DNA of 32,000 bases from Pyrobaculum aerophilum str. IM2 (GCF_000007225.1 NC_003364.1:2190001-2222000), one strand, 5' to 3'. Shown: positions 8,344-30,486, numbered from the stretch's first letter. Notes: generated by a model not told the origin, from the letters alone. Numbers and translations: made by a program.

Positions 8344-8590
8344 TGGCCAATAAAACATTGAGTAATGAATGAGCTCAAGGCGTTGGAGTTCAAGGCCTCC
8401 GGGGGCTTTCAGCCTCTGCGAGAGAAAAGCGATAGTAGCTGACGCCTCGGCCGTAGCCGCCTACTTAAGCCCGCGTGGGAATAGCAGGCGAGCTGTTTCT
8501 CCCGGGCCTCCAGCCCGCGGATTTTTCCTCAAGAAACCTTTGGGTTTTCGCCCTTGGAAGACCTTATATATACGGGGCTGGATATTATTC

Positions 8591-9102
8591 GTGGAGATAA
8601 GACTTGAGTTGCCGGAAAAACTCATCAAGAGGATCGAGGAGCTTTCATTAAAAGAAGGCGGCACTGTCGAGGAGAAGGTGGCCGAGATTCTCTACCGCCA
8701 TCTTGAGGACAACGACCCTGATTTAAAAGCGGAGATCCACTTGAAGTTATGTGAGAAATATCTAAGCGAAGCTGAGCAACTGGCACAGAGGGGGGATTAC
8801 CTGCAAGCCTCTGAAAAGGCGTGGGGCGCTGCGGCGCAGTTAGTAAAGGCAGTGGCCGCCAAACGGGGAGTGGAGCTTAAGAGCCACGGCGATCTCTGGC
8901 GTTTTGTCACTAAGCTTAGGGAGGAGACGGGAGACGCCGAGGTGGGGAGGCTGTGGCATGTGGCGAACAGTTTATACGTAAATTTTACGAGGCATGGGCA
9001 ACGCCGAAGCTCGTCAGAGACGCTATTAAAGACGTCAAGACTTTCGTCGAGAAATTAAAACAGCTTTTGCTCTCCACCGGGAAGTCTGGGGCGAATGGGT
9101 AA
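8591..9102 (+). pseudogene. PaREP1-family gene with a -1 frameshift in a T run
   Basis: GTG 8591 lies 23 nt downstream of ttatatata (8564-8572). 'YLSEAEQLAQRGDYLQASEKAWGAAAQLVKAVAAKRG..SHGDLWRF..LWHVANSLYVNF' is typical PaREP1. At tttt (8983-8986) the frame breaks. The shifted frame continues 'YEAWATPKLVRDAIKDVKTFVEKLKQLL..' to TAA 9100-9102. Confidence 0.7.
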
Positions 9103-10660: not shown

Positions 10661-11869
10661 ATGTCCGTGGCTGGGAGAAGGCTTGACAACGTCTATCTAG
10701 TCGCGTTCTCTAGAACCGCCTTCACGAGGTTTTCGAGGAAAGAGCCTCAAAGAGACGACTTCTGGGACTTAAGGCCTGAGGAAATCGCCGCAGTGCCTGT
10801 GAGGGCGTTGTTAGAGAAAACAGGCGTGAGGCCTGAGGACGTGGAGGAGTTGCTCACGGGGACGGCGTTGCCAGTGGGGGAACAGTGGCTCTACGGCGGC
10901 AGGCACGTGGTCTTCGCCGCCAAGTTGCCGTACACAATCCCCGCCGCTCATATCGACAGGCAGTGCGCCTCGTCAATTACAACCGTGGGCTACGGCGCCA
11001 TGGAAATAGCCACTGGGATGGCCGACATCGTAATAGCGGGAGGGGTGGAGAAAATGTCCAAGACCCCCATGTATGAAAACCCGCATATAGAAATCAACCC
11101 CAAGTTCCTCACAGACGACGAATATGTAAGGCTTTACAACTTGCCCATTGGCTACGTCATGGGCCTTACCGCGGAGAGGTTGGCGGAGATCTCCGGCATT
11201 AAAAGAGAGGAAATGGACGCCTGGTCTTTAAGAAGTCATAAAAGGGCAGCCGAGGCGTACGAAAAGGGCTATTTCAAAGACGAGATAGTGCCCGTGGCTG
11301 TGGAGCGGGAGGGACAGAGGAAAATAGTTGATAGGGACCAGTCTATTAGGCCGGACACCTCGCTTGAGGCCCTCGCCAAACTCCCGCCGGCGTTTAAGCC
11401 AGACGGAGTAATTACAGCGGGCAACTCATCGCCGCTTAATTCAGGCGCCGCATATGTAATGTTGGCTTCGGGGGAGGCGGTGAAGAAATACGGCCTCCAG
11501 CCAATGGCGAAAATTAGAGCGGTGGCCTTCGCCGGAGTTCCGCCGGAGGTTATGGGGATGGGGCCCGTCCCCGCCTCGCGGAAAGCCCTTGAAAAGGCCG
11601 GCCTCACCGTGAAACAAATAGGGAGGTGGGAGATAAACGAGGCCTTTGCCGTGGTGACTCTATACGCCATTAGAGAGCTGGGCATAGACCCGGAGTTAGT
11701 GAACACCAGGGGAGGGGCAATAGCCATCGGCCACCCCCTGGGCGCCACGGGGGCGCGGATTATAGGCACACTTGCCAGACAGATGCAATTAGACGGAGTT
11801 GACTACGGCGTCGCTACGTTGTGTGTCGGCGGCGGGCAGGGAGCGGCCGTTGTTTTAGAAAGGGTATAA
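10661..11869 (+). CDS. acetyl-CoA C-acetyltransferase (thiolase)
   Basis: 'DRQCASSITT' (active-site Cys), 'NEAFA', 'GHPLGATGARI', 'CVGGGQGAA'. TATA atttttaaac (10632-10641) about 24 nt upstream. Confidence 0.9.
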   Translation: MSVAGRRLDNVYLVAFSRTAFTRFSRKEPQRDDFWDLRPEEIAAVPVRALLEKTGVRPEDVEELLTGTALPVGEQWLYGGRHVVFAAKLPYTIPAAHIDRQCASSITTVGYGAMEIATGMADIVIAGGVEKMSKTPMYENPHIEINPKFLTDDEYVRLYNLPIGYVMGLTAERLAEISGIKREEMDAWSLRSHKRAAEAYEKGYFKDEIVPVAVEREGQRKIVDRDQSIRPDTSLEALAKLPPAFKPDGVITAGNSSPLNSGAAYVMLASGEAVKKYGLQPMAKIRAVAFAGVPPEVMGMGPVPASRKALEKAGLTVKQIGRWEINEAFAVVTLYAIRELGIDPELVNTRGGAIAIGHPLGATGARIIGTLARQMQLDGVDYGVATLCVGGGQGAAVVLERV

Positions 11870-11904
11870 GAGACAGATTTATAACACACAAGTTTTTTAT
11901 CCCC

Positions 11905-13338
11905 ATGCGCTTCGTCCTTGTAGTACTGGTTTTGGCGCTTACTGTCTTTTCGGCGACAATCCTCACCCGCGCCGACCAGGCCTCAATTGACGCCGCCCTC
12001 CCCGTGTTGCAGAAATACTTCCCCGACGTGAAGCTCATACCCGCAGATCCGACGCAGTGGAGAGCGCTTATTGATAGAGGCGGCGTCGATTTCTTATGGG
12101 CGGGCGCCCCCGTTCTATACGAGGCCTTGTTAAAAGAGGGCTATCTTGCGCCTATGCCGGAGGTACAAGAGCTTAAAAACCTCCCGGACAGCGTTGGGAA
12201 TATAAGGCTAAAGAGAATAGGCCCAGACGGCAAGGTTTACTACGTGATATACGGCCTCATTGGATACGTGATAGGCTACAGCAGAGAGGCCTTGGACAAA
12301 GCCGGCGTTAAGCCAGTGTGTAGCTGGCGGGATTTGGCCTCGCTTAATTTGACAAAATACTACCTAGACACCGGCGTCAAGCCCGTAGTCCTCGCCCGGC
12401 CGACGAAGTCCACCTCTACAGCCGCTATGATGCAATTAGTCACTGAGATATACGGGTGGGAAGAGGGTTGGAAATACCTCACTTCTATGGCGGCCATCGC
12501 CCGCTTTGTTGACTCCAGCGGCGCGGTGAGGGACACTGTAAAGAGGGGGGAGGCCCTCTTCGGCCCCATGGTTGATTACTACGTCTTTATCGCAGGGCTT
12601 GACTACTGCATTCCCGCAGACGGTACTGACATCCTCTTCGATCCCATTGCGGTGCCCAGGGGGGCCAACGCCACAGTGGCAACAGTGTTGACCCGGGTAT
12701 TCCTAACTGAAATGAAGAAGAGGCTGGTGGACAGGTACATACTGCCGGGGAACCCCGCCGTGCTTGACTCCCCAGAGGTAAATCGCACTAAGGCAGCGGT
12801 GTTGAAAAACCACCTCCAAAGGCTGATGAGCGCGAAGATCATGTCCGTGCCTCCTGAGAAAAGCGCATCTTATTACTACTCCTTTATTTACTACTACGAG
12901 GCGACTCTGGTGGATTTACAAGACGTTTTGACAGACACTTGGAGCGGAATAGTGAGGGCCTACATATCGGGCCAAATCACGAGGGAGCAGTTTGAAAAAT
13001 TGTGGAGACTCCTGGGGGCCCCCGTCAACTACACAGATCCCGAGACGGGGCAGACAAGAACTTTTATATATCAGACAGCTGTGGAGATAAACGACAGAAT
13101 TGGGAGAGACGCGGCCTATAGAGATAAGGTATATCAAGCGTGGCGCGAGGCCGCGAGGGCAAAATACCAACAGGTGGGCAAGTTGCTCCAGCAGTACGTT
13201 GAGGAAAACGCGGCTAAAACCCCGGCGGCCCAGCCAGCGGCTCAGAACAACGTGCTGCCCCTCTTGGTTATTCTTGTCATTATCGCCGTGGCGGCAATTG
13301 TGATATTGGCCAGGAGAAAGACGGCACAAGCGTCTTAA
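11905..13338 (+). CDS. extracellular solute-binding protein (ABC-type, family-1-like) with C-terminal TM anchor
   Basis: Start moved to ATG 11905 (MRFVLVVLVLALTVF signal), with gatttataac about 24 nt upstream. The fold call rests on overall periplasmic-binding-protein-like sequence character only. C-terminal LPLLVILVIIAVAAIVILARRK. Confidence 0.55.
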   Translation: MRFVLVVLVLALTVFSATILTRADQASIDAALPVLQKYFPDVKLIPADPTQWRALIDRGGVDFLWAGAPVLYEALLKEGYLAPMPEVQELKNLPDSVGNIRLKRIGPDGKVYYVIYGLIGYVIGYSREALDKAGVKPVCSWRDLASLNLTKYYLDTGVKPVVLARPTKSTSTAAMMQLVTEIYGWEEGWKYLTSMAAIARFVDSSGAVRDTVKRGEALFGPMVDYYVFIAGLDYCIPADGTDILFDPIAVPRGANATVATVLTRVFLTEMKKRLVDRYILPGNPAVLDSPEVNRTKAAVLKNHLQRLMSAKIMSVPPEKSASYYYSFIYYYEATLVDLQDVLTDTWSGIVRAYISGQITREQFEKLWRLLGAPVNYTDPETGQTRTFIYQTAVEINDRIGRDAAYRDKVYQAWREAARAKYQQVGKLLQQYVEENAAKTPAAQPAAQNNVLPLLVILVIIAVAAIVILARRKTAQAS

Positions 13339-13700
13339 CGGACTCCGACGGCCAACTCCTCCAAGAGCCTTTTAATTTTCTCGACGGCATAGAGAACCTC
13401 CTCGGGCTGATAAACGCCCTCGTAAAACGCCTCTTCGTGGAGCGTTTTCATGAGATCGCTGTAAAGAGCGCGGAGATCCTCCCTGCCCAGTTCTCTTAAC
13501 ATTTTCCGCCGCTCTGCATGGCTCCTAGGCACTATCCCCGTCTGGGTTGCTATATAGGCATTGATGGTCAATACCAAGGCTAAAAAGGCCTTGTCCGCTG
13601 CGTTGCGGTATAGGAATATGTCTTTTGTCTTAAGTGCTCTTTCCAGCTCCTCTACGGCGTATTGCAGAATTTCCCTCGCCGTCTCTAATTCCGTTTTCAC
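13335..13700 (-). CDS. four-helix PaREP1/PaREP8-like (HEPN-like) protein
   Basis: GTG start with cctaataaagcc about 24 nt upstream. 'YRNAADKAFLALVLTINAYI..PRSHAERRKMLRELG..LHEEAFYEG' resembles the NAAGKAF..-type helices of the PaREP1 genes in this window. Confidence 0.55.
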   Translation of the reverse strand: MKTELETAREILQYAVEELERALKTKDIFLYRNAADKAFLALVLTINAYIATQTGIVPRSHAERRKMLRELGREDLRALYSDLMKTLHEEAFYEGVYQPEEVLYAVEKIKRLLEELAVGVR

Positions 13701-13743
13701 ATAATAGAGGATTTGTGGCTTTATTAGGATTACAGAGTGCGGG

Positions 13744-14001
13744 TTATATCCCCAGCGTGTCCAACAGCCACTTCCACTGGCTGTACGCCTCTAAAAACTT
13801 GAGACCTTCTGGCGTTATGCATATCTCACTGCCCTTATCTGTTACAAACCCCCTCTCGGCTAACGCCTTTATTATTTTAGCCATTCTATCATATGCGAGA
13901 TTAGCCTCCGTTGCTATGTGTGTGGGCTTTTTACACCCTTTAGATAGGACTTGTAAAATATCCACTACTATCTCCAGCCTACTTCGCCTTTTGCGAGCCA
14001 T
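13744..14001 (-). CDS. small winged-helix DNA-binding protein
   Basis: 85 aa. 'RSRLEIVVDILQVLSKGCKKPTHIATEANLAYDRMAKIIKALAERGFV' has a wHTH pattern. The ATG overlaps the upstream gene by 23 nt, so it is operonic. Confidence 0.6.
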   Translation of the reverse strand: MARKRRSRLEIVVDILQVLSKGCKKPTHIATEANLAYDRMAKIIKALAERGFVTDKGSEICITPEGLKFLEAYSQWKWLLDTLGI

Positions 14002-14521
14002 AAATCACGCCGAGCGTTAAAAAGACCGCTGTGAGCAGTCTAGCCACTAAGTCAAGATTTGAAAGAAGCGGGGCCACGAGGGAGAGGGCGTAGGAGATAA
14101 AGGCCAGGGAGATAAACGGCGGGTTGCGCCTCTCCAGCGATTTAATTAAAGTGACGGCGGCTATGTACAAAGAGAGTAATGCGTTTATTGGGACCAGAAT
14201 AATGACGGGCGGCAGTACGGCGTAAAATAAAGACGGCGTGACTGCCACTGCGATGGGCACAAGGGCGGCGAGGCTGAGCAGTTGTATTACCGCTCTGAAA
14301 AAGGTCTCTTGCCTTCTAATAAACTGCATGGGGGCCTCTCCAAGGAGGTTATTTAGATATATATCCACGACTGCTTCTATAATTAACGACGCGGCTAACA
14401 TTACTAAGCCGAAGGAGTATAGAGAAAGCCTCCAGTCAATTAAGCTGCGCCAAGCTTGAAAAATTTTATAGGCTACGTACAGGGCTAAGACGGCTATTAT
14501 TATATCAGGTATAAAGAGCAT
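13979..14521 (-). CDS. polytopic membrane protein (about 5 TM), function unknown
   Basis: The ATG immediately follows the permease stop (TAAATG). The 180-aa product is hydrophobic. Confidence 0.6.
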   Translation of the reverse strand: MLFIPDIIIAVLALYVAYKIFQAWRSLIDWRLSLYSFGLVMLAASLIIEAVVDIYLNNLLGEAPMQFIRRQETFFRAVIQLLSLAALVPIAVAVTPSLFYAVLPPVIILVPINALLSLYIAAVTLIKSLERRNPPFISLAFISYALSLVAPLLSNLDLVARLLTAVFLTLGVIYGSQKAK

Positions 14522-15736
14522 TTACTCATATCTCAGCGCCGACACTATATTAATTCTCCCCGCCCTATAAGCGGGGAGGAATGCCCCCATTAAGTTTATA
14601 GCCACGACTAAAGCCGCTGTAGCGGCCACTAAGAGGGGGTCGAGGACTAGGGAAGTTATGGCGAAGGCGCTTCCTTGAGGACCGGCGAAGCCCCCTGGAA
14701 AGCCCGCCCTAGGCGGTTGAGGCCCGGCGTTGCCCATGAAGGGCAAGCCGCTCTGGGAGAGGGGTATTAATAAGGCGGTTCCGACCAACACGCCAATTCC
14801 GGCGATAATCAAGGCCTCGGTGAGGAACATCAACATTACGTGTCTCTTCTTAAAGCCCAGGGCTCTTAAGATGCCTATTTCCTTTGTCCTTTGTACTACG
14901 CTTATGGACATGGTGTCGTACAGCCAGAGGGCGGTTATCACAGTGCTAACCCCCGCTATCAGCCCTAGGAACAACTGGAAAGAGGTCAAGTAGCTGTTTA
15001 TTGTTTGTAGAATTGCCTGCGGCGAGATTACGTCTACATTGGGAAAGTTCGCCCTCACGTCGTTAGAGACGGAGTCTATAAGCGAGGAGTCCTTAAGGTA
15101 CAGAACTACTACGTTATAACTAGATATGCCCGTGATTTGGCGGAAGGCGGAGAGGTCCATCACCACGCCTCTCGACGTGTCTATAAAGCCCAGCGACCCA
15201 GTGGCTAAAATGCCCGACGCTACGGCTGTTACGGACTTCCTGCCTATTATTAAAGATACTGGAGACCCCACTGCCACTCTCTGCTGTCCGGTGGAGCGGT
15301 CAAAGGCCACATAATATCCAACTAATATTAAATTTGACCCCACTACCAGCTGTCCGTCGTAAAGCGCCGTGGGCGGTAAGAGCTGTCTTAAAAGCGCGGG
15401 GTCAACGCCGTAAATAGTAACTGGAGTCTGTCCAGTAATACCGGCGACGCGCACAGAGCCCCTCGCAGTTGCAATGGGAATGGCAGTCTCAACGCCGTTT
15501 ATTGTAGACAATGTGCCCACATCGGCGTCTGTGAACTGGGCCCCAGTGACGTATATCACATTTGTCTGGAAATTAGAGGTGAAAAACCGCGTTGTGTAGT
15601 CTTTAAACGTCTGCCCTAAGAGTAGGGCGTAGCTGAGGGCCGTGAAGGCGATGACTACGCCGATAATTGCGCCAATAGTGCGGCCCTTCCTCTCCCACAG
15701 AGCGTTCCACGCAAGTCTTAGGACTTCTGAAAGCAT
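14522..15736 (-). CDS. MacB/FtsX-family ABC permease (paralog A)
   Basis: Start moved to ATG 15736 (MLSEVLRLAW aligns residue for residue with MYWEVIRLSW of paralog B). tttatataa (15757-15765) lies about 25 nt upstream. Architecture: TM1, large extracytoplasmic domain, 3 TMs. 'RTKEIGILRALGFKKRHV' and '..PAYRAGRINIVSALRYE' are FtsX-family hallmarks. Confidence 0.85.
   Translation of the reverse strand: MLSEVLRLAWNALWERKGRTIGAIIGVVIAFTALSYALLLGQTFKDYTTRFFTSNFQTNVIYVTGAQFTDADVGTLSTINGVETAIPIATARGSVRVAGITGQTPVTIYGVDPALLRQLLPPTALYDGQLVVGSNLILVGYYVAFDRSTGQQRVAVGSPVSLIIGRKSVTAVASGILATGSLGFIDTSRGVVMDLSAFRQITGISSYNVVVLYLKDSSLIDSVSNDVRANFPNVDVISPQAILQTINSYLTSFQLFLGLIAGVSTVITALWLYDTMSISVVQRTKEIGILRALGFKKRHVMLMFLTEALIIAGIGVLVGTALLIPLSQSGLPFMGNAGPQPPRAGFPGGFAGPQGSAFAITSLVLDPLLVAATAALVVAINLMGAFLPAYRAGRINIVSALRYE
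14895..14974. repeat. 80-bp inverted repeat with 2 mismatches, copy 1 (partner 28297-28376)
   Basis: A 56-nt perfect run plus flanks. It encodes LFLGLIAGVSTVITALWLYDTMSISVV in both permease paralogs. Confidence 0.85.
15599..15704. repeat. 106-bp perfect inverted repeat, copy 1 (partner 27567-27672)
   Basis: Hand alignment: the reverse complement of 15599-15704 equals 27567-27672 at all 106 positions. It encodes ..ALWERKGRTIGAIIGVVIAFTALSYALLLGQTFKD. Confidence 0.9.
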
Positions 15737-15789
15737 GAAACGCGACACGTGCTGAGTTTATATAATGAATTCACTTTAAGTGAGTATAG

Positions 15790-15799
15790 TTTTTAAATA
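15790..15799 (+). promoter_or_regulatory. TATA-like box for the surface-protein gene
   Basis: tttttaaata centred about 24 nt upstream of ATG 15818. The divergent partner box is at 15757-15765. Confidence 0.5.
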
Positions 15800-15817
15800 C
15801 GCCACGGCCGCGTGTCC

Positions 15818-17929
15818 ATGAAGTGGACAATCACGGCGTTAGTAATATCAATGGCGCTGGCGGCGCTGGCTTACAGCCAGGCAACTGTGGGCTTAACTCC
15901 TTCGGTGGATTACCTCTGGCTCGGCGCCAAGTGGAGCCAAGTGCCGAAGTACCCAGGCGATATAGGCGTCCTAACCCTTTCCTATTATCTGTCAAACCAG
16001 TATGTTGACGTCTCTGTATATATTGATCCGAAATGCCCCTACCTCACGCCTCTGGAAACCGCCAGGCTCCCGTCGGCGGGTCCCGGCGTTGTCACCGTCG
16101 CCCTTAAGGTGTCAGTCTCGGCGCTAAACGTTACGTGTCCAGTCAACGTTGTGTTCCACGCTACATATAAAGCCGCGGGTTCGTCTCTCACAGACGGAAT
16201 GGAGAAAGTGGAGTACGCCGAGATTTACATACCGCCATACCCTACGGCGGAGGTATCCGCTAGGGGTGTGGCGTATATTGGACTGCCCAGCGCAATTACG
16301 CTAATTGTCAAAAGCCCCTATTTACTCATGGCCTCGCTGTCAGTACAGGGGCAGGGGGCGCGGGTGCTCTCTCCCACGGGCCAATACGCAGTAAATAGCA
16401 CATATGCGGAAATTCCAGTTATTTTAATAGCGGATACCTACTCGGCGTCTTTGCTAGTGACTATACAAGCGAGGGATTGGCTGGGGAACCCAGTGGCGCT
16501 GACATACGCCGTTCCAGTGGCAGCGGCGCCTACGCCTCCGCCAGTGCTTTACATAAGCCCAACTACTCTATATCTCAACAAGTACAACAGAGTCAACCTC
16601 ACAATACAACTGCCAGTGGCGGCAGACGGCCTAGCCGTAGTGACCGCCTCAGGCGCCGTAATGCCTCAGTCAAGTATAACAATTCCCATTAAAAACGGCA
16701 GGGGGTCGGGGCAGGTCGAAGTTTACCCAGTGGCAAACGCGGTAGTCTTCACGGCGCAAGTCACTTATCAAACCTCCGGCGTCTCAAAAACTGACCAGAT
16801 ATCAGCCACCGTTTCTGTCCAGCAGACAGTAGGAGGAATTGCAAAGGTAGTAGTAAAGCCCTCTAGGCTTATAGCAGGCGTTACGAATAACGTCACCTTA
16901 ATTGCCTCGGCGCCCGGCCCCTTTAACGTCTCAGTAACTGTGTCAAACGCCGCAGTGGACAAGCCCCAGCCCTTTTACTTCGGCGGCGCGGACACGGCAT
17001 CGGCAAGCCTATTAATCACCCCGCTTTCAAACCAGCCAGTGACAATTGCCGTGTCTATTTACCACAGCGCCGGCGTGGATCAGTACACTATTAACCTGCC
17101 CGTGACCTCCTCCAGTATATACACAGTAATCCCAACGCCCTCTATTGTAAAGTCCGGGGGCAACCGTACAGTAATAGTGACTGTAATAAACAGCGGCGAC
17201 GTGGCCGTGCAAAAAGCCGTAGTCACCATCTCCCCCGCGTCGGGCAACGTCCTAGCCTCCACATACACCTTCCAAATAAGCCGCCTCGCCCCGCTTGACA
17301 GCGTCCAGTTGCCCATTTCCTTTATAGTCCCCGCAACATACAGCGGCACAATAGCCTTTACATACAACATAGTCTACACCACGGAGCTCGGCACTACGAG
17401 CTCCGCCCAAGGCACTTTCTACCTCCAGTCCCTCCAGACGCCGGTGGTTAATATCACCAGCGTCACTGTGGTCCCAACAGTGCCGGAGCCCAGGAGGACG
17501 TTTTATATCTCCCTAACAGTGGTCAACAAGGGCTTCGCCTCTGTGTCAAATTTACAAGTAGAGGCCAAACTGCCGCGGGGCATTAGGCCGGTGACCTCGC
17601 CGATATATTTCGCCGGCCAGCTCGACTCCCAGCAGACGGCCACAATACCCCTAAGCTTCAACGCAACTGCGCCCGGCCAGTACCAAATAGAGCTGACAAT
17701 ATCCTATACAGACCAATACGGCAATTACTACACAATTCCCTACACGGTGACGATAAACGTGGCCAATGGCACTAGATTCCTGGGCCCCGGCGGCAGGCCC
17801 ACGACTGCGCCGCAGGTCGGCGCCAGCAACTTCGGCCAGACTTGGACATACGCCGCGGCGGCTGTGGCTGTAATAATAGCGGTAATTTCAGCTCTTTACC
17901 TCACGAGGCGTAGGAAACTAAAAAGTTGA
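15818..17929 (+). CDS. large extracellular beta-rich surface protein with CARDB/COG1361-like repeats and C-terminal TM anchor
   Basis: Start at ATG 15818 (MKWTITALVISMALAALAYSQA signal). Many NxS/T sequons. Two C-terminal repeats of the type 'T..V.V.N.G.. ....V......PG.Y.I.L.ISYTD..G'. C-terminal AAAAVAVIIAVISALYLTRRRK. Confidence 0.75.
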   Translation: MKWTITALVISMALAALAYSQATVGLTPSVDYLWLGAKWSQVPKYPGDIGVLTLSYYLSNQYVDVSVYIDPKCPYLTPLETARLPSAGPGVVTVALKVSVSALNVTCPVNVVFHATYKAAGSSLTDGMEKVEYAEIYIPPYPTAEVSARGVAYIGLPSAITLIVKSPYLLMASLSVQGQGARVLSPTGQYAVNSTYAEIPVILIADTYSASLLVTIQARDWLGNPVALTYAVPVAAAPTPPPVLYISPTTLYLNKYNRVNLTIQLPVAADGLAVVTASGAVMPQSSITIPIKNGRGSGQVEVYPVANAVVFTAQVTYQTSGVSKTDQISATVSVQQTVGGIAKVVVKPSRLIAGVTNNVTLIASAPGPFNVSVTVSNAAVDKPQPFYFGGADTASASLLITPLSNQPVTIAVSIYHSAGVDQYTINLPVTSSSIYTVIPTPSIVKSGGNRTVIVTVINSGDVAVQKAVVTISPASGNVLASTYTFQISRLAPLDSVQLPISFIVPATYSGTIAFTYNIVYTTELGTTSSAQGTFYLQSLQTPVVNITSVTVVPTVPEPRRTFYISLTVVNKGFASVSNLQVEAKLPRGIRPVTSPIYFAGQLDSQQTATIPLSFNATAPGQYQIELTISYTDQYGNYYTIPYTVTINVANGTRFLGPGGRPTTAPQVGASNFGQTWTYAAAAVAVIIAVISALYLTRRRKLKS

Positions 17930-18125
17930 AAAACTCCTCAGCCTCTTCTTCAGTTAAAAACCCCACGCCTAATTTTTCCGCGAGCTCCTTGTCCCCAACC
18001 ACCACTGCGAACTTCCCCCTTATGTCAGGCACTCCGTTTTTGGCGGAGACAACCTCCAGCCCCTCTATTTTTAACTGGGCCCATTTCTGCGGAATATCTC
18101 CCTTAAATATCACGATAAGAGTCAT
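17901..18125 (-). CDS. small (74 aa) cytoplasmic protein with acidic tail, unknown function
   Basis: The internal ATG at 18125 is preceded by a strong tttttatatagg box about 22 nt upstream. Sequence MTLIVIFKGD...EEEAEEFF. The 3' end overlaps the surface-protein gene by 29 nt. Confidence 0.4.
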   Translation of the reverse strand: MTLIVIFKGDIPQKWAQLKIEGLEVVSAKNGVPDIRGKFAVVVGDKELAEKLGVGFLTEEEAEEFFNFLVSYAS

Positions 18126-18264
18126 AGTGCACAATTTGTACCTATATAAAAACATTACTGCGTAATCCCTGTTGTCCAATGTTAAAACTCGCCGGCCCGG
18201 CCTCCCCACCAATCGGGCTCGCCCTCGGCAGTCACAAAATCCTTACTTCAAAGAAGACTATAGC

Positions 18265-18597
18265 TTAAAACCATTTCTCCAGCAGTTTATAAACAACTCC
18301 GTAGCCCAGAGACATAACGCCGAAAAAGGCGATGGCGACAGCCAACGCCGTAGTGAAGTACCCGCCCTCAACCGTTACTCTGCCGCCTAGTAACAACGCC
18401 GCTATTAACAGCGACAGTAGAATTGCAGTTAAGACGCCGAAGATGACAAGGGCTTGTGTAAACGGCCCCCTGTTACGCAGAAATATCCCCACGACCACTG
18501 CCACAACGACGAACAAGGCCACGGTAAGAGGATCGGAAATTCTCAAAGCCACGGCCGCCGCGGCGGGGACGACCGCCGAAATCAGAGGCCTCAACAT
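18265..18597 (-). CDS. small membrane protein (3-4 TM)
   Basis: 110 aa, hydrophobic. gtttttattag box about 25 nt upstream of ATG 18597. Confidence 0.55.
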   Translation of the reverse strand: MLRPLISAVVPAAAAVALRISDPLTVALFVVVAVVVGIFLRNRGPFTQALVIFGVLTAILLSLLIAALLLGGRVTVEGGYFTTALAVAIAFFGVMSLGYGVVYKLLEKWF

Positions 18598-18745
18598 GCC
18601 ATTAAAAACGTCCAGCTAATAAAAACATTATACAAATCACTTGTTGAAAGCGCTTTCGGTGTAAATGAAAGAATTCCAAAAAACTCAGTACTTAAATGAA
18701 ATAATTACATTAGATACAGGAGATAATACTTCATTCATTCATTCC

Positions 18746-18756
18746 TTAAAAGCATA
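18746..18756 (+). promoter_or_regulatory. TATA-like box upstream of the small Cys-rich ORF
   Basis: ttaaaagcata centred about 23 nt upstream of ATG 18773, the same spacing as the well-supported genes. Preceded by (tcat)x3 at 18731-18742. Confidence 0.4.
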
Positions 18757-18772
18757 GGAAAGTTCAAAAAAC

Positions 18773-18961
18773 ATGGCAACGGTAGAAAAAATAAAGAGAT
18801 TAGAGAGAATGGCAAAATACGCGCCAGCGGCAGCCACACTGGCGTTAATAGGAATAAGCCAATTTGCAAACGCGATGAGTATCTCTCCTAATGAGATATG
18901 TTTTGATGGATGGTGTATTAGGATTTGTGGGCGGATAGGACCCTTTAAGATTTGCTTGTAA
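18773..18961 (+). CDS. 62-aa pre-peptide: signal-peptide-like N-terminus plus 28-aa cationic 4-Cys C-terminal region
   Basis: The ORF is open in a locally AT-rich stretch. It has a basic n-region, h-region YAPAAATLALIGISQF, an A-N-A motif, then MSISPNEICFDGWCIRICGRIGPFKICL. The promoter-like box has canonical spacing. Confidence 0.45.
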   Translation: MATVEKIKRLERMAKYAPAAATLALIGISQFANAMSISPNEICFDGWCIRICGRIGPFKICL

Positions 18962-18990
18962 CAATCTTAAAATAAGGTATATTTTTTCAC

Positions 18991-20004
18991 GTGCTTTCTA
19001 TTTACTCTGTATATGCCGAGGAGAGGAGGGGGTTAATAGTGGGGATATTCCTCACGGCCTTCCTCTCCACCCTTGCGTTGACTGCGGCATTTGCCTTTTG
19101 GGATCTCGGCGGCGCTCTGGCGGCGGATCTGAGGGATTTGTTGGGCTTGGGGCGGTACGTCATTATGTCCCAGGAGGGGGCTGGGCTGACGTGGGCCGAC
19201 GTGGCTAAGGCCGCGGCCGCCGTGTGCTCCGACAGGTCGTACGGGGTGACTTACCTCCCGCTGAAAATAGCGTATTTAAACGGCACTGAGCGCTGGGTCA
19301 CTGCCGCTTTTCTCCCGCGGTGGGCAATGGAGGGAATTGCATTGCTGGAAGTGGCGGCATCACAGGCCTTGGCCAGAGAGGGCGATATGCTATACGCCTA
19401 CATATCTGGGAAGCCCCTCCTTGTGACAGTGGCTAGGGCCCTAAGGGGCCAGATTTACGTGCCGGGCCTCTCCGCCGATTTGTATTTAGACTCAGACCTC
19501 ATCGGCGCCTCTCATTTCAACGTCATAGTTGTCGAAAAGGGGAGTTGCGGTAGTGTCGAGGATTTAAGGGCCCTCTTCCCCGGGGCTGTTGTGTTAGACA
19601 CAGACGCGCTCCTCACTGCCTTTTGGGGCCAGCTGTTAATATACTTGGCCGGTGCGGCCGTTGTGGCGGCCTCTGCCACCGCCGCAGTGGCGGCCATGAG
19701 CTACGCCTTGGCCACATCGGCGCTACAAGCCCATTGGAAAGACTTTGCCATTATGAGAGTACTCGGCATGAAGAAGCAGCAGTTATTGGCGCTGGCCGCC
19801 TTGTTGTTCTACACGCCCGCCTTGTCGGGGGTCGTCGCCGCGGCGTTTTTGGCGGGGGGAATAGAAGTTGAGGGGCTGGGGGGCATGGCCTACAGCGCAA
19901 TTAAAGCCGCGGCAGTGGTTGGCGCCTCCTCGGCGCTTCCCCTCTTCCCAGCGTTTAGAAGGCTGTACTCCATGCATCCAGTGGAGGCCTTGAGGCATGA
20001 GTAG
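18991..20004 (+). CDS. MacB/FtsX-family permease (third, divergent copy)
   Basis: GTG start. Architecture: TM1, about 170-aa outside domain, 3 TMs. 'FAIMRVLGMKKQQL' and C-terminal 'PAFRRLYSMHPVEALRHE' match the FtsX-family signatures seen in the other two copies. Confidence 0.75.
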   Translation: MLSIYSVYAEERRGLIVGIFLTAFLSTLALTAAFAFWDLGGALAADLRDLLGLGRYVIMSQEGAGLTWADVAKAAAAVCSDRSYGVTYLPLKIAYLNGTERWVTAAFLPRWAMEGIALLEVAASQALAREGDMLYAYISGKPLLVTVARALRGQIYVPGLSADLYLDSDLIGASHFNVIVVEKGSCGSVEDLRALFPGAVVLDTDALLTAFWGQLLIYLAGAAVVAASATAAVAAMSYALATSALQAHWKDFAIMRVLGMKKQQLLALAALLFYTPALSGVVAAAFLAGGIEVEGLGGMAYSAIKAAAVVGASSALPLFPAFRRLYSMHPVEALRHE

Positions 20005-21091
20005 AGCCGTTTATTCGTGGCCTGCACCGGTTTACAAGCCAGGAGAATACTTGTTAAAACTGCCTAACGTGAGGGAGTCGCCGTATCAAACGCGGGAAGA
20101 GGGCGGCTCAGTTGTCTGCACTCTCTGTCACAGGCGCTGTAGGCTGCCGCCCGGCAAGATAGGCGCATGCGGCATGAGGTTTAACCTCGGCGGTAGGCTG
20201 TACACGGCGGCTTACGGACTTTTGACAGCCGCCGAGTCTAGGCCGATGGAAATAAAGCCATTGTACCACTTCTACCCCGGGACTTCCGCTGTTACAATAA
20301 GCACGTGGGGCTGTAACTTCCCGTGTGCTTGGTGTCAAAACTGGCATTTGAGCAAGACGGCGTCGCCGGCTGGCGCCTACGTCCCGCCCGAGAGAGTTGT
20401 GGAGTGGGCCCTGGAGAACGGGGATTCAGGTGTCAACGTGAGTTTCAACGAGCCAACTCTTTTGGCTGAATACGCCGAGGAGGTCTTCAGGCTAGCCCGT
20501 GCCCGGGGCCTCCACGCCTCTATTAATACCAACGGCTACCTCACTGAGGAGGCGGTGAGGAGACTTGCCGAGGCGGGCATGGAGGGGATGAACATCGATA
20601 TTAAGGGCGGGAGGGAGACGTATAGAAGGTGGCTCGCCGCGAATTTCGACAAGTTCCTCTCCACAGCCCGCCACGCGAAGGGCATGGGAATACACGTCGA
20701 GTTTACCTACCTGGTCATCCCGGGCGTAAACGACCACGAGGCGGAAGAGGTAATTGAGGCGGTGGCCTCCTTCGGCCGGGAGACTCCTCTCCACATAACC
20801 GCCTACTACCCGGCACATAAGCTCTTCAACCCGCCCACGCCCCCGGAACTCCTCGAAGAGCTGTGGCGCAGGGCGAGGAGAGAGCTGGACTACGTCTACG
20901 TGGGCAACGTCCCGGGACACCCTGGCCAGCACACCTACTGCCCAAGGTGCGGCTACGCCGTGATAAAGAGGGCGGGAGACAGGGCTGTGAAAATAGAATT
21001 GGCACAGGGGAGGTGTCCCAAGTGCGGCTGGGAGATTCCCATTAGAGGAAAGCCGGGAAAATACGGACGGCTCTACCGCTCGTTTATATAA
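19997..21091 (+). CDS. radical SAM enzyme, PflA-like / AmmeMemoRadiSam (AmrS)-type
   Basis: The ATG overlaps the permease stop by 8 nt. 'GCNFPCAWCQNW' (CX3CX2C), N-terminal 'CTLCHRRC..GACG', 'IKPLYHFYPG', and a C-terminal CPRCG..CPKCG ribbon. Confidence 0.85.
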   Translation: MSRAVYSWPAPVYKPGEYLLKLPNVRESPYQTREEGGSVVCTLCHRRCRLPPGKIGACGMRFNLGGRLYTAAYGLLTAAESRPMEIKPLYHFYPGTSAVTISTWGCNFPCAWCQNWHLSKTASPAGAYVPPERVVEWALENGDSGVNVSFNEPTLLAEYAEEVFRLARARGLHASINTNGYLTEEAVRRLAEAGMEGMNIDIKGGRETYRRWLAANFDKFLSTARHAKGMGIHVEFTYLVIPGVNDHEAEEVIEAVASFGRETPLHITAYYPAHKLFNPPTPPELLEELWRRARRELDYVYVGNVPGHPGQHTYCPRCGYAVIKRAGDRAVKIELAQGRCPKCGWEIPIRGKPGKYGRLYRSFI

Positions 21092-21284
21092 CCCCCGCGC
21101 CGATTGAGCTAAGAGCAATAACTCTTTTTCCCCCGGAGGCGCCATATGCTTTTTTGCGGCGCTCTGATCTTACTGGCGACCCCCGGCTGCCGCTGGATGT
21201 ACAGGCAGAGCCCAATGCCCGTTGCAAACGCTTCCCAGCGCCAAATTTTATAACGTAAAAAAGGGAGTGAAGTGTAGAGCTGGA

Positions 21285-21720
21285 ATGCCCTGGCGGGAGT
21301 TGGCTAAGTATAATGAGGGGAGTTTGGCCGGGGCGAAGTACGGGGCGGGGCTAAAACCCCCGGAGGCCGGCCTTTATAAAAACGCCGCTGGATAGGCATT
21401 TCAAGCGTTTAAAGGGGCTCTAGCGGCCGGGCGCAGGGACTATAAGGCGCGTAAATACGCCGTCATCAAAAGGCTTAAAGGCGGGAAGAGGGTAGAGTAT
21501 GTAGACAGGCTTGCTATTATAACGGGGCTTCTCTTAGGAAATCGCAAGGGATCTCTCGGCGCTGGAGGAGGCAGAACTACTGCACTACGCCAACACCGCC
21601 CTCAATCTCAGCGAATTCCAATACAACGGTAGCGGCGCGCTGAGCAGGCGTGCAAGACTGAAATCCGTAGAGGAGGACGTAGCGGCGTTTGCGCGTTATG
21701 TCATTAGAAAAGGCGCCTAG
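21285..21720 (+). pseudogene. PaREP1-family pseudogene (in-frame TAG plus frameshift)
   Basis: 'LYKNAAG*AFQAFKGALAA' (TAG at 21393-21395 where the neighbour has K in NAAGKAFQAW). The frame shifts near 21540-21550 into 'ALEEAELLHYANTALNLSEFQYNGSGALS..VEEDVAAFARYVIRKGA*', which is collinear with 'ALDLHDYQYHGPDPDMALS..' of 21783..22319. Confidence 0.6.
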
Positions 21721-21782: not shown

Positions 21783-22319
21783 CTATAATTTGAGTGCTTT
21801 CAGTGCCCTTTCGAGTTCCTCACTCCACTGGACTCTTTGCCTCAATGCCTCAACGCGCTTAGCCAGTTCTTTCAGAAGCAACACGACGTCTCTAGCCGCC
21901 TCCTCTCTGTTGCGGTATTTGCTCAACGCCATGTCCGGGTCTGGGCCGTGGTATTGATAGTCGTGGAGATCAAGCGCCTTGTCAGTGCCGAAAGAAATGC
22001 CCCCATGTCCCACCTCCTCCAACATTTGTGACAACGCCTTTATTCTCCCAGTGGGAACTCTCGGCACTGCTGTGGATTCAAGCCAGCGCCTCTCATCCTC
22101 AGTCTTTACAACGGCCTTAAGTTTTTCTAACTCCAACCGGAGGAGAGCCGCCAAAAACGCCCGCCATGCTTGAAAAGCCTTCCCAGCGGCGTTTCTCACA
22201 AGCCCCCTCTCAAGAAACTCCAAAGCAAGACGCCCCTCCACCAGAGCCTCTAACAAACGCGCAGAGACATAGCCCTCAGTCGACGGCTTGGGAAGGGGTT
22301 TTTCAAGTAGTTTCTCCAC
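21783..22319 (-). CDS. PaREP1-family protein (intact)
   Basis: GTG start with gcataaaaataac about 24 nt upstream. 'LVRNAAGKAFQAWRAFLAALL', 'DLHDYQYHGPDPDMALSKY'. All-helical, 178 aa. Confidence 0.7.
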   Translation of the reverse strand: MEKLLEKPLPKPSTEGYVSARLLEALVEGRLALEFLERGLVRNAAGKAFQAWRAFLAALLRLELEKLKAVVKTEDERRWLESTAVPRVPTGRIKALSQMLEEVGHGGISFGTDKALDLHDYQYHGPDPDMALSKYRNREEAARDVVLLLKELAKRVEALRQRVQWSEELERALKALKL

Positions 22320-22470: not shown

Positions 22471-22977
22471 TTATGGGGATTTGCAGACTGGTATTAAAGC
22501 CGGTCCGTCTAAATCGTAGTAGTAGCCCTCGACCTCTGCCCACAGCTCTCTTAGCTTTTCACACGCGATTTTCACGTTTTCCACCTCCGCCTTTCTCAAG
22601 TCCCCGCCAGCCCTCTTGACTGCCTCGTTTAACTAGGCGGCGAGAGAAGGCGGCGCCTCGCCTTTAAAGGCCAGCTCAACCGCGCCGCAACGTTTGTGTC
22701 CAATTACGTATATCTTCTTGACGCCGAGTTTTTCAACTGCGAATTTCAACGAGTCGTATACGGCGTCTGTGACCACGTTGCCTGCTATTCTCACGACGAA
22801 CATGCCGCCAATATTTGAGAGAGTCAGCAACTCGTGGGAGAGGCGAGAGTCTGAACAAGTCAAAACTGCACACCGCGGCGATTGGCGGCTGACAGTGGCC
22901 TTTATTCTCGCCAAAATGCTCTCGGCGGTTAAAGCCCCGGCTCCGTTTAATAAATTTCTAAAACCCTCGAGGCACAT
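22471..22977 (-). pseudogene. beta-class carbonic anhydrase (Cab-type) interrupted by one in-frame TAG
   Basis: 'CSDSR', 'RIAGNVV' and 'IGHKRCGAV' precede the TAG (22633-22635). The same frame continues for 54 codons, 'LNEAVKRAGGDLRKAEVENVKIACEKLRELWAEVEGYYYDLDGPALIP..', to TAA 22471-22473. This gives about 169 aa, the normal size for Cab-type enzymes. Confidence 0.75.
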
Positions 22978-27534: not shown

Positions 27535-28722
27535 ATGTACTGGGAGGTAATACGCCTTTCTTGGCGCGCTCTGTGGGAGAGGAAGGGCCGCACTATTGGC
27601 GCAATTATCGGCGTAGTCATCGCCTTCACGGCCCTCAGCTACGCCCTACTCTTAGGGCAGACGTTTAAAGACGCCGTAAGTGACTACTTCACGAAAAACT
27701 TCCAGCTGGACTCCCTCTACGTCACCGGGGCCCAGTTCACAGACGCCGATGTTAACGTGTTGAGGACTATCCCAGGCGTGGCGCACGCGGTGCCCATCGC
27801 CGCGGCCAGGGGCTTGGCCAAGGCGCCGGGGCAGCAACAGCCAGTGGCGGTCACTATATACGGAGTGAGCCCGGCTTACGCGGCGTTAATAATACCGGAA
27901 ACTGCGCTTTACGAGGGGACTCTGGCGTTGGGCGGCGGTTTAGCCCTGGTTGGGTACTACGTGGCCTTTGATCGCTCTACGGGCGAGAGGAGGCTGGATC
28001 CCGGCGCCCCCCTCACTATTCAGATGGGGAGGAGGACGGCCTCTGTACAAGCCTCTGCCGTGCTGGCCTCCGGAGCAGTTGGCGTTTTGGACACCTTACG
28101 CGGCGTTGTTGTCGACATTGCGCTGTTCAGACAGCTTGTGGGATCTGATACATACAACTTCGTATTAGTCCGCGTTAAGGACACAGCGCTGTTAGAACAA
28201 GTCGCGGCGGATATACGGGCATATTTTCCAAGCGCGGACGTTATATCCCCCCTGGCTGTTTTACAGACATTTGAAAGCTTCTTCACGTCCTTTCAATTGT
28301 TCCTAGGGCTGATAGCGGGGGTTAGCACTGTGATAACCGCCCTCTGGCTGTATGACACTATGTCCATAAGCGTAGTCCACCGCACTAAAGAAATCGGCGT
28401 GATGCGCGCCCTCGGGTACAAGAGGAGGCACATAATGATCTTATTCCTCGCAGAGGCTCTGCTTATAGCCGCCATGGGAATCGCGCTTGGCGCCGCCGCC
28501 TTAATCCCTCTGGCACATGCCGGCCTCCCCACTCCTGGCCAGACTTCCTCAAGCCTAAGGCCGGCCTTCCACCCGCCCTTTGCCGTACAAAGCCTTGAGC
28601 TAAACCCAGTGATTATGGCCGCGGCGGCCGCCCTAGTGATAGCAGTGAACCTCGCAGGCGCAGTCCTGCCGGCATACAGGGCGAGCAGGATAAATATCGT
28701 CGCTGCTCTGAGATACGAATAA
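27535..28722 (+). CDS. MacB/FtsX-family ABC permease (paralog B)
   Basis: Collinear with 14522..15736, roughly 60% aa identity by eye. 'RTKEIGVMRALGYKRRHI', '..PAYRASRINIVAALRYE'. Confidence 0.85.
   Translation: MYWEVIRLSWRALWERKGRTIGAIIGVVIAFTALSYALLLGQTFKDAVSDYFTKNFQLDSLYVTGAQFTDADVNVLRTIPGVAHAVPIAAARGLAKAPGQQQPVAVTIYGVSPAYAALIIPETALYEGTLALGGGLALVGYYVAFDRSTGERRLDPGAPLTIQMGRRTASVQASAVLASGAVGVLDTLRGVVVDIALFRQLVGSDTYNFVLVRVKDTALLEQVAADIRAYFPSADVISPLAVLQTFESFFTSFQLFLGLIAGVSTVITALWLYDTMSISVVHRTKEIGVMRALGYKRRHIMILFLAEALLIAAMGIALGAAALIPLAHAGLPTPGQTSSSLRPAFHPPFAVQSLELNPVIMAAAAALVIAVNLAGAVLPAYRASRINIVAALRYE
27567..27672. repeat. 106-bp perfect inverted repeat, copy 2 (partner 15599-15704)
   Basis: See copy 1. 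Confidence 0.9.
28297..28376. repeat. 80-bp inverted repeat, copy 2 (partner 14895-14974)
   Basis: See copy 1. Confidence 0.85.
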
Positions 28723-29313: not shown

Positions 29314-30486
29314 TTGGGCGTAAATCCCTATGAGTTAATTACATTCGGAGACTTGCGGCTGAGGCTTGGCGCGAAATTCTTATTAGCTTGTAAAGCCGGT
29401 GACGGAATGGGCGCCAGTGCCCCGTTGGAGCGGTTTGTAGCTTTGTTAATCCTATCGGGCAAGAACGTTCTCCTCGTCGGCGCGCCGGGCGTTGGGAAGA
29501 CGGAGCTGGCGCTTAGGGCCGCGCGTTTTTTCACCTGCTGCGAGCCCGAGGTGGAGGCGGGCCGGGAGGACTTGTCGTATGAAGACTTAGTCTGGAGCTA
29601 CGCCGTGGGCCCAGACGGCAAGTTGGAGAGAAGGCTTGGCTCTCTGGGGCGCGCGGTGAAGAGGAGCTGGGAGTCATTGGCCAAGGGCGGAGGCCCCTGC
29701 CATTACGTCCTCGACGAGATTAACAGGGCGAACATCGACGTGGCCCTCGGCCGCGTCTTTACAGCCCTTGACGTTGAGCACAGGCCCAGGGTTAAGGTCT
29801 TTGAGGAGGCGGGAGTCGAGCCTCCCCTAATCCCCACGTCGCTGAGAGTCTTCGCAACTATGAACGTAGTGGACAGAGGCCAGCTTTTTAAACTCAGCTT
29901 TGCCCTCTTGCGGAGATTCGCCTACGTCTACGTGCCCCCTCCCCATAAATCTATCTCGCCGAGATTAGAAATACCCCATATCATCAAGCGCGATATTGAC
30001 TTCACCCCATACGCCGAAAGGGCGTACAAATCTCTTACAATTAACGGCGTGGGGCCCGGCGACATACCGACTATTTTAAAACTGCCCATTCCCCAGCCGG
30101 GGGAGATATTAGCCGAGGTGGACAGGCTAGGCCTAACTTCGCTTTTAAACTGGGCTCTTGAAAAAGCAGAGAGACTTGGCTTAGAGGTAGGCCCCTCTAT
30201 GATACTAGACGTGTTAAAAATCGCGGCTGTACGGGCCGCGGCGCCTAATTCGCTTAAGTTAGAAAAAGGCGCTTTTATTGACTTCGTGGCCTCTTCGCTA
30301 GTTCTGCCCTACTTCGCCTCAGCGGCCCCGAGAGTGCGCCAGAAGGCAATACTCTCCGCGAGACCCCCCGGCGAGTTGGAGGAGATGAGGAAAATAGTAA
30401 ACGAGGTGAAGGAATTTTTCGGCGAAACCTCGGCGTCCTATACCGTGGCGAGAGGCTTGCTCTATGAACTCCCGGCGGAGGTGTGA
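29314..30486 (+). CDS. mcrB: McrB-like AAA+ GTPase subunit of a type IV restriction system
   Basis: 'LLVGAPGVGKT' (Walker A), 'VLDEINRAN' (Walker B), 'ATMNVVDRG..FALLRRFAYVYV' (McrB MNxxDR / RRRF signature). The start is uncertain: TTG 29314 directly after a TAA, or ATG 29407. Confidence 0.85.
   Translation: MGVNPYELITFGDLRLRLGAKFLLACKAGDGMGASAPLERFVALLILSGKNVLLVGAPGVGKTELALRAARFFTCCEPEVEAGREDLSYEDLVWSYAVGPDGKLERRLGSLGRAVKRSWESLAKGGGPCHYVLDEINRANIDVALGRVFTALDVEHRPRVKVFEEAGVEPPLIPTSLRVFATMNVVDRGQLFKLSFALLRRFAYVYVPPPHKSISPRLEIPHIIKRDIDFTPYAERAYKSLTINGVGPGDIPTILKLPIPQPGEILAEVDRLGLTSLLNWALEKAERLGLEVGPSMILDVLKIAAVRAAAPNSLKLEKGAFIDFVASSLVLPYFASAAPRVRQKAILSARPPGELEEMRKIVNEVKEFFGETSASYTVARGLLYELPAEV

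Follow-up and report, generated by a model that had tools for sequence, protein, structure and literature searches.

What is the function of the short open reading frame (ORF) that precedes a permease-like ORF and a radical SAM (rSAM) ORF in Pyrobaculum aerophilum str. IM2, and which of its neighbors act with it? The locus lies in a 32,000-nucleotide (nt) stretch of the genome (NC_003364.1:2190001-2222000; the whole stretch is referred to as the window). A sequence-only reading of the window had proposed that the three genes encode a secreted four-cysteine peptide, its exporter or immunity permease, and its maturase, as in the loci of ribosomally synthesized and post-translationally modified peptides (RiPPs). 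The observation itself is confirmed. All three ORFs are present in the translation; the peptide sequence, its A-N-A motif, and its C-x4-C-x3-C-x8-C spacing match exactly; a TATA-like box ends 19 nt before the ATG of the small ORF; 29 nt separate it from the permease ORF; and the start codon of the rSAM ORF falls within the last 8 nt of the permease ORF. Support for the interpretation is partial: the peptide-permease module holds, and the rSAM/RiPP part does not. The comparative data are best read as a cassette for a predicted Sec-exported, disulfide-bonded peptide, its cognate partner in the membrane, and a permease resembling MacB.

The small ORF had been singled out because it stays open in an AT-rich stretch. 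The AT-richness is real (GC content of 34.6% for 18598-18990, against 54.3% for the whole window), but ORF length fails as evidence, since 8.5% of 393-nt regions simulated with a Markov model of matching composition also contain an ATG-initiated ORF of 62 codons or more. Homologs are more informative. The 62-amino-acid (aa) product is identical to RFA95454.1, a P. aerophilum record named 'hypothetical protein'; the P. aerophilum records of this protein are labeled 'hypothetical' or 'uncharacterized' and assigned to no family, and the same locus architecture occurs in more than 20 public contigs of P. aerophilum type. Word-indexed protein searches with the peptide alone or with a three-sequence profile recovered only the peptide itself and P0009, so an exhaustive search was needed. 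A profile hidden Markov model (HMM) search of a representative library of 1.84 billion proteins matched P0009, P0010, P0011, and P0012 (E 4e-34 to 4e-13). One peptide cluster comprises 16 members from independent metagenomes, and the profile search together with locus look-ups (L006 and L009-L015) yielded intact homologs from five further lineages, with one peptide gene per locus.

All members share a basic 16-residue n-region, M-x-x-[IVL]-x-K-[IVL]-[KR]-R-[LY]-E-x-x-x-[KR]-x-[AT]-P, with a hydrophobic stretch after it. Position -3 is A or V, position -1 is always Ala, and the core has the consensus P-[NS]-E-I-C-x4/5-C-x3-C-x8-C-[LVIF]. In the alignment, M1, K6, R9, E11, P18, A34 (position -1 of the cleavage site), P39, C43, C48, C52, and C61 are invariant. 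Judged by the -3/-1 rule, the features of a Sec signal are present in all six lineages. The reading frame is kept in lineages whose adjoining permeases share only 37-49% identity with the window permease, and indels between lineages are multiples of three. Within one lineage, the ratio of nonsynonymous to synonymous polymorphism (pN/pS) is 0-0.96, below 1 for leader and core. These comparisons indicate that the small ORF is a real gene under purifying selection, and they bear out the proposal that it encodes a signal-bearing four-cysteine mini-protein. Positive selection on the core was considered and rejected (core pN/pS 0-0.84, few sites). Tat export, suggested by the long n-region with its K/R-R pair, was judged unlikely, as most members have KR rather than RR; the acidic residue after the pair and a hydrophobic core some 8 residues later would also speak against it.

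The peptide family matched no entry in Pfam, NCBIfam, PADLOC, or the PDB sequences (14 members were scanned against Pfam, NCBIfam, and PDB), and neither the permease nor the peptide profile had a match when viral contigs were scanned. The window core has a grand average of hydropathicity (GRAVY) of 0.64 and a computed mass of 3166.505 Da with two disulfides, or 3170.536 Da when reduced. Two looser core types can be distinguished: CIRIC-x-x-IGP-x-K-IC-L in the window and in lineage E (loci L010, L013, L014, and L015), and C-[FYI]-[KR]-[YF]-C-[FY]-[KR]-x-x-II-[KS]-IC in L011, L006, and L012. The cores of the window and lineage E are identical at 19/28 positions, and those of L011 and L012 at 18/28. 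The distribution of the types does not track permease similarity; the window and lineage-E permeases are only about 41% identical despite their similar cores.

The 337-aa product of the following gene scored 16.7 bits with Pfam FtsX, below the cutoff of 25.5, and its family assignment therefore needed profile-profile and fold support. The same model matched 7 of 8 permease homologs (best E 3.8e-5). In hhalign, the protein aligned with MacB_PCD/FtsX permeases at a probability of 96.3-96.8% (E 3e-10), over a region comprising the end of the extracytoplasmic domain, the second transmembrane (TM) helix, the coupling helix, and TM3. Its segments are ordered as TM1, an extracytoplasmic domain of ~165 aa, and TM2-TM4, and the coupling-helix motif KDFAIMRVLGMKK is conserved; this cytoplasmic helix is the segment closest to canonical permeases (KDFAIMRVLGMKK versus KEIGILRALGFKK). 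By blastp, the homolog L010_335 matched the 408-aa MacB-type protein of the window (Table 1; E 1e-6). The AlphaFold (AF2) model has a helix at residues 10-51, an alpha/beta domain at 55-203, and helices at 204-247, 262-293, and 297-327. Its best 33 PDB matches in Foldseek were all MacB, LolCDE, HrtBA, YbbAP, BceAB, or FtsEX; E values went down to 3e-7 with low TM-scores (0.14-0.45), and the matches were used only as a family-level ranking. On this profile and fold evidence, the predicted protein is a divergent FtsX/MacB-type permease, that is, a type VII ATP-binding cassette (ABC) permease. A PDB sequence search gave no match for the permease, and scans of genome and metagenome collections with it returned only near-identical or L002-type loci (L002-L005 and L008).

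The alignment of the extracytoplasmic domain contains an invariant cysteine, C79, and a second cysteine near position 186 in all lineages, which suggests a disulfide in this domain. Thiol-disulfide interplay between the domain and the four-cysteine peptide would be pure speculation.

The proposed link between the peptide and permease genes was found in every lineage with the peptide. A peptide gene followed by a permease homolog and preceded by a small TM gene occurs in the window, L001, L006, L009-L015, and L016-L020. The small TM gene encodes a predicted four-helix protein, and every locus has a homolog of it (~110-120 aa) ahead of the peptide gene or of what remains of that gene. The conserved core, as judged from gene order, is the divergent ~110-aa four-helix protein, the 62-aa precursor, and the FtsX/MacB-type permease; an immunoglobulin (Ig)-domain surface protein of ~700 aa is often linked to it. 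The 110-aa protein matched nothing in Pfam, NCBIfam, PADLOC, or the PDB sequences and is a candidate specificity partner, either an immunity protein or a receptor. The cassette appears to be a small accessory cell-envelope unit in a few Pyrobaculum-like lineages.

The 3' side of the cassette is not constant. An aEF-2 gene follows the intact cassette in L006, and unrelated, variable genes follow the permease gene in L010, L013, L014, and L015. Inactivated forms also occur. In the L002-type loci, an in-frame TAG stands at position -2 of the peptide cleavage site and a 2-nt deletion shifts the frame of the permease gene; the rSAM gene is intact. The peptide pseudogene (L002 5594-5794, and also in L003-L005 and L008) retains its frame and four cysteines past the single TAG, which points to recent inactivation. 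The loss of its TATA box, together with the permease deletion, argues for decay rather than read-through of the stop. L007 has intact permease and rSAM genes but no peptide gene. A decayed peptide remnant in L007, suggested by a MAFFT alignment, was rejected because neither an HMM nor a blastn match was significant.

Putative regulatory signals are conserved along with the cassette. A TTAAAA/TTATAAA box equivalent to that of the window (Table 1) lies 18-19 nt before the ATG in L006, L009-L013, and L015, and is destroyed in the L002 pseudogene lineage. Its distance from the ATG implies a leaderless or near-leaderless transcript. The spacers between peptide and permease genes contain an oligo-T tract and a TATA-like box in all lineages, and the TATA stretch is retained in L007, which lacks the peptide. 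The spacer is likely to act as a terminator or attenuator of the peptide transcript and as the permease promoter, a function suggested by these elements. The region between the divergent genes also holds a short conserved motif of the (G)TATTAC type, some 40 nt ahead of the peptide ATG (window ~18727-18733, where it reads ATAATAC) and likewise placed in L006 and L009-L013. A regulator might bind there, or the motif might be the promoter element of the divergent 110-aa gene.

Table 1. Positions of the cassette, its signals, and adjacent genes in the window
Feature	Position	Strand	Remarks
MacB_PCD + FtsX permease, canonical, 408 aa	14522..15748	-	Pfam FtsX 56.1 bits, MacB_PCD 42.6 bits
Surface protein, 705 aa	15812..17929	+	Signal peptide, Ig-like (NEW3/CARDB/DUF11-like) domains, C-terminal membrane anchor
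Predicted four-helix membrane protein, 110 aa	18265..18597	-	Divergent from peptide gene
TATA-like box TTAAAAGC of peptide gene	18746-18753	+	Ends 19 nt upstream of ATG
Small ORF, 62 aa, ATG start	18773..18961	+	Secreted four-Cys peptide precursor gene (predicted)
Predicted 34-aa Sec-type signal peptide	18773-18874	+	Ends A-N-A; rule-based
28-aa core MSISPNEICFDGWCIRICGRIGPFKICL	18875-18958	+	Part of 62-aa precursor
Peptide-permease spacer	18962..18990	+	TATA-like box TTAAAATA 18967-18974; T6 run 18982-18987
Permease-like ORF, 337 aa, GTG start	18991..20004	+	29-nt spacer after small ORF
rSAM ORF, 364 aa, ATG start	19997..21091	+	Overlaps permease ORF end by 8 nt

Close relatives may also carry a different allele of the cassette. 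The metagenomic contig L011 is 92.5% identical to the window over 7.6 kb (window 10714-18314), and its flanking proteins are 92-97% identical to those of the window. From ~18314, at the 3' end of the TM gene, nucleotide identity falls abruptly to 40-55% and stays there across the peptide gene. The encoded TM protein is 41% identical, the peptide 45%, and the permease N-terminus 70%, a partial recovery. The L011 cassette is closer to the L002/L007 alleles (78-88% nt identity) than to the window allele and identical to none of them, which argues against a simple assembly chimera. A chimera with the co-sampled L007 was considered unlikely, the shared segments being 79-88% identical in nucleotides. 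These comparisons show the cassette lost, pseudogenized, or swapped for a very divergent allele between close relatives. Such a pattern of alleles and losses would be typical of accessory allele-specific systems such as toxin/immunity or pherotype loci.

An archaeocin-like (bacteriocin-like) toxin/immunity system for competition between Pyrobaculum strains is our leading proposal, to which we give a little less than an even chance. In this system, the Sec pathway would export the precursor, and cleavage behind the conserved A/V-x-A site would free a hydrophobic peptide of 28-30 aa with two disulfides, without radical SAM chemistry. The FtsX-type permease would act at the outer face of the membrane, like MacB, LolCDE, BceAB, or YknYZ, and would either extract and release the cleaved peptide or clear it from the producer membrane. 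Its ABC ATPase may be encoded nearby in some lineages and be supplied in trans (or absent) in the window lineage; the conserved coupling-helix motif suggests a partner in trans. The co-diverging four-helix protein would confer allele-specific recognition, most likely immunity. Indirect support for antagonism and immunity comes from the L011-type allelic cassette, from loss and pseudogenization, and from the apparently orphan TM protein and permease of L007. A bolder form of the proposal, that this is the first Sec-dependent disulfide-stabilized archaeocin family of hyperthermophilic Thermoproteota, with divergent alleles exchanged between Pyrobaculum species and repeatedly lost, is doubtful at present.

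Several points weigh against the toxin/immunity proposal. No ABC ATPase was found in the whole window by tblastn or beside the lineage-E cassettes, and given no ATPase encoded nearby, transport by the permease is a candidate role only. The net cationic core noted in the sequence-only reading holds marginally for the window (charge +1) and is not conserved, the lineage-E core having an isoelectric point of 6.1. Cleavage of the precursor is predicted solely from the -3/-1 rule, and the conserved 16-residue n-region, unusual for a disposable Sec signal, makes an uncleaved membrane anchor possible. The AlphaFold models are of low confidence; the predicted local distance difference test (pLDDT) score is 56.7 for the permease and 57.9 for the peptide, both too poor for structural conclusions. 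The dN/dS ratio never exceeds 1 and thus gives no direct indication of diversifying selection. The family is recorded from only about six lineages, and the divergent allele was observed in a single contig, L011, which ends inside the permease gene.

Among the alternatives, a role in envelope assembly or structure survives best, although we consider it unlikely. The small protein would be an anchored or embedded subunit, or a cargo extracted by the permease in a Lol-like manner and handed on to, or used along with, the Ig-domain surface glycoprotein; it would have no part in antagonism or signaling. The strong conservation of the n-region (K6, R9, E11, K15, and P18) would be atypical of a discarded signal peptide and agrees with this role. 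So does the 679-705-aa surface protein, which is linked repeatedly in two gene orders. Type VII ABC permeases also commonly do extracytoplasmic mechanical work, as do LolCDE and FtsEX, both among the top fold matches. However, the cassette is dispensable, as indicated by the L002-type pseudogenes and by L007, where the peptide is deleted and the permease kept; its distribution is extremely narrow; and allele divergence inside conserved flanks would not be expected of a housekeeping structural subunit. Moreover, the short L006 contig shows no surface protein next to its cassette.

Strain-specific signaling is somewhat less probable still. The peptide would be a pheromone, and the four-helix protein or the permease extracytoplasmic domain its receptor or processing partner, resembling the hypervariable peptide/receptor cassettes agr, comCD, and comQXP of bacteria. 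A pherotype locus would account for the divergent TM-protein/peptide allele within conserved flanks and for the core types that are incongruent with permease similarity. Within peptide clusters, substitutions fall mostly in the core and the leader is conserved, and a pN/pS below 1 is what a ligand that must keep binding would show. Against this, no kinase, regulator, or signal-transduction gene is conserved in the cassette, an HTH_45 gene being limited to the P. aerophilum-type neighborhood, and the loss of the peptide in L007 with its membrane genes kept suits orphan immunity better than an orphan receptor. We know of no peptide quorum sensing in Thermoproteota, at which no search was specifically aimed.

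The RiPP model, in which the rSAM enzyme would put thioether or other crosslinks on the four-cysteine peptide and the permease would export the product, is very improbable. The three genes are contiguous, the window, L002, and L007 all have the 8-nt overlap between the permease and rSAM genes, and the peptide is rich in cysteine. The enzyme, however, matched the AmmeMemoRadiSam model TIGR04337 over its full length (residues 30-357 of 364) at 218.2 bits against a cutoff of 220, and its orthologs in L002 and L007 scored 237.6 and 220.2 bits. Together with the CX3CX2C motif (CNFPCAWC), the N-terminal CTLCHRRC...C cluster, and the C-terminal CPRCG...CPKCG zinc ribbon, all of which it shares with AmmeMemoRadiSam, this match agrees with the PflA-like/AmrS architecture that had been recognized from the sequence. 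Pfam gave Radical_SAM only, and no RRE or other extra domain was found in the Pfam and NCBIfam scans; the SPASM-type models listed matched the rSAM core alone (~103-261, E 1e-4 to 1e-5), no HHpred-level search being run. Likewise, no AMMECR1 or Memo domain was found in the scanned ORFs of the 32-kb window, in line with the earlier reading.

Gene order speaks more strongly. The rSAM gene stays intact where the peptide gene is disrupted (L002-type) or absent (L007) and the permease-rSAM pair is kept, and it is missing beside the five intact cassettes of two other lineages (L006, L010, and L013-L015); the first of these patterns is one that the sequence-only reading had itself listed as refuting it. 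Instead of a RiPP leader, moreover, the peptide has a predicted Sec-type signal and its A-x-A site, and Sec export would separate it from a cytoplasmic maturase unless it were modified first. The RiPP model is thus largely refuted by synteny. The enzyme is judged to be an ordinary AmmeMemoRadiSam-type enzyme (AmrS), a hitch-hiking neighbor outside the peptide system. Fortuitous adjacency of a housekeeping AmrS, which the sequence-only reading had offered as its alternative, therefore holds for the rSAM gene, but not for the peptide-permease pair. The rSAM enzyme is 83% identical to its L002/L007 orthologs, compared with 62-65% for the permease and 40-50% for the small TM protein. Its adjacency is limited to the P. 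aerophilum/L002/L007 subclade and is independent of the peptide, so the 8-nt overlap reflects a lineage-specific operon fusion of a widely conserved enzyme onto the permease gene. In this one Pyrobaculum subclade, the gene departs from known AmmeMemoRadiSam genes in its translational coupling, which is to an FtsX-type permease gene and not to AMMECR1/Memo; a literature search found no paper on the function of AmmeMemoRadiSam. A genome-mining pipeline would accordingly err in labeling the locus a RiPP cluster, and the result corrects a tempting mis-annotation of the enzyme as a RiPP maturase.

The weakest alternative, a chance open frame in an AT-rich promoter region or an overlap with a non-coding RNA, might draw on the simulated ORF lengths and the lack of family assignment in the records, but has next to no probability and is refuted by the comparative data, with frame, length, four cysteines, and cleavage motif kept across such divergent loci, and with no Rfam match in 17800-21400.

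Other genes around the cassette differ in how closely they follow it. The 705-aa surface protein reached 24.3 bits with Pfam NPCBM_assoc, just below threshold, and its homologs in L010, L013, and L015 (33% identity, E 2e-92) adjoin the small TM gene in a different orientation. In GCA_003400145.1 (L017 1041-3157), the surface protein gene is split into 565 and 155 aa, and an alpha-amylase gene comes right after the rSAM gene. The 408-aa MacB-type permease joins the cassette only in the group of P. aerophilum, L002, L007, and L011, is absent at the lineage-E loci, and is outside the conserved core. A second MacB_PCD/FtsX permease gene (27535-28722, plus strand), whose product is 62% identical to the 408-aa protein, has no adjacent ATPase gene and is followed by a MoxR-like AAA_5 ATPase gene (29314-30486, plus strand). 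In L002 and L007, a gene for an ABC_tran ATPase of 239-242 aa lies two genes upstream and overlaps the end of the 702-aa gene; it is absent from L011 as from the window. In both of the latter, ~390 nt take the place of ~1 kb (window 17793-18186, between the 705-aa and 110-aa genes). On the minus strand of this stretch lies an ORF (17901..18212, 103 aa) that has a 74-aa counterpart of 92% identity in L011 and that is also called in L017-L019.

A PADLOC defense-system scan matched no cassette protein. The flank 3' of the cassette varies between strains; one lineage-E strain has a TnpB/Cas12f-like gene right after its cassette (L014 2436-3974). Three PaREP1-family genes are present in the window, at 8369-9058 (with a HEPN match), 13335-13700, and 21783-22319, one of them directly downstream of the rSAM gene. 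Farther on, a beta-carbonic anhydrase gene (22633-22977 and 22471-22599, both minus strand) is broken by TAG in frame (22633-22635). In contig L016, which is 99.3% identical, the codon is CAG (Gln) and the ORF runs uninterrupted, so the TAG may be a strain-specific nonsense mutation, or possibly a site of read-through.

The findings define a new family of 28-aa peptides, predicted to contain two disulfides, from organisms that grow near 100 °C. Its candidate partner genes and its natural allele, loss, and pseudogene variants make function directly testable. If the proposal is true, the locus represents an archaeal toxin/immunity (or pherotype) polymorphism near 100 °C, and it would show the use of a MacB/FtsX-type permease in the archaeal envelope, possibly without a dedicated ATPase. 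To our knowledge, known archaeocins are halocins and sulfolobicins only, none with an FtsX-type permease and none in Thermoproteales. Nor do we know of any ribosomal peptide antagonism or peptide signaling in Thermoproteales; narrow literature searches gave none, and 'Pyrobaculum' with 'archaeocin' returned no paper. A paper from the Pyrobaculum/bacteriocin literature describes no such system (PMC12408343).

How does the cassette compare with described systems? The peptide, the 110-aa protein, and the permease have no sequence membership in described families of the SDP-YknWXYZ or lactococcin 972 kind, and the lineage-E proteins likewise matched nothing in Pfam, NCBIfam, or the PDB sequences. 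Halocins of Halobacteria and sulfolobicins of Sulfolobus are likewise ribosomal archaeal antagonists, and some small halocins are hydrophobic, cysteine-containing, and similar in size; however, their sequences show no detected similarity to the cassette, and they leave the cell by other routes, some halocins through Tat and sulfolobicins in association with vesicles. Lactococcin 972-type loci encode a Sec-dependent bacteriocin and dedicated ABC or immunity membrane proteins. The cassette would share with them the plan of an unmodified Sec-dependent peptide encoded beside dedicated membrane transporter or immunity genes, but its peptide is far smaller and cysteine-rich. No cassette protein matched lactococcin 972-type families in the Pfam and NCBIfam scans.

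On the permease side, MacAB, which secretes the heat-stable enterotoxin STII, and the peptide-resistance systems BceAB and Spr0693-0695 of Streptococcus pneumoniae (PDB 5xu1) belong to the same fold family (Foldseek matches 5gko, 5xu1, 8g3a, and 7tcg). Systems of the MacAB-STII/BceAB type also handle small, often disulfide-bonded or membrane-active peptide substrates on the extracytoplasmic side, and MacAB has been implicated in enterotoxin secretion (PMC4887032). In contrast to these, the permease here is more divergent, with its sub-threshold FtsX score; it is not fused to a nucleotide-binding domain, lacks both adaptor and TolC, and its extracytoplasmic domain is shorter.

SDP, derived from SdpC, and YknWXYZ are the closest functional precedent. 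YknWXYZ has four components, namely a permease of the MacB type, its ATPase, a small protein with four TM helices, and an adaptor that is anchored, and it protects Bacillus against the disulfide-containing SDP (PMC4887032). The present system differs in several respects: it has no sequence relationship to SDP/YknWXYZ; its small TM protein is not Yip1 by Pfam; its large protein is Ig-like rather than a membrane-fusion protein; its peptide gene lies within the transporter cassette; and its predicted activity would take place in an archaeal host with an S-layer envelope. Regarding the ATPase, the likeness extends to some loci (L002 and L007), but not to the window or the lineage-E loci. Both systems, nevertheless, combine a signal-peptide-dependent ribosomal small peptide, with an intramolecular disulfide (predicted here), with a MacB/FtsX-type permease that has an extracytoplasmic domain, a small multi-helix protein, and a membrane-anchored extracytoplasmic partner.

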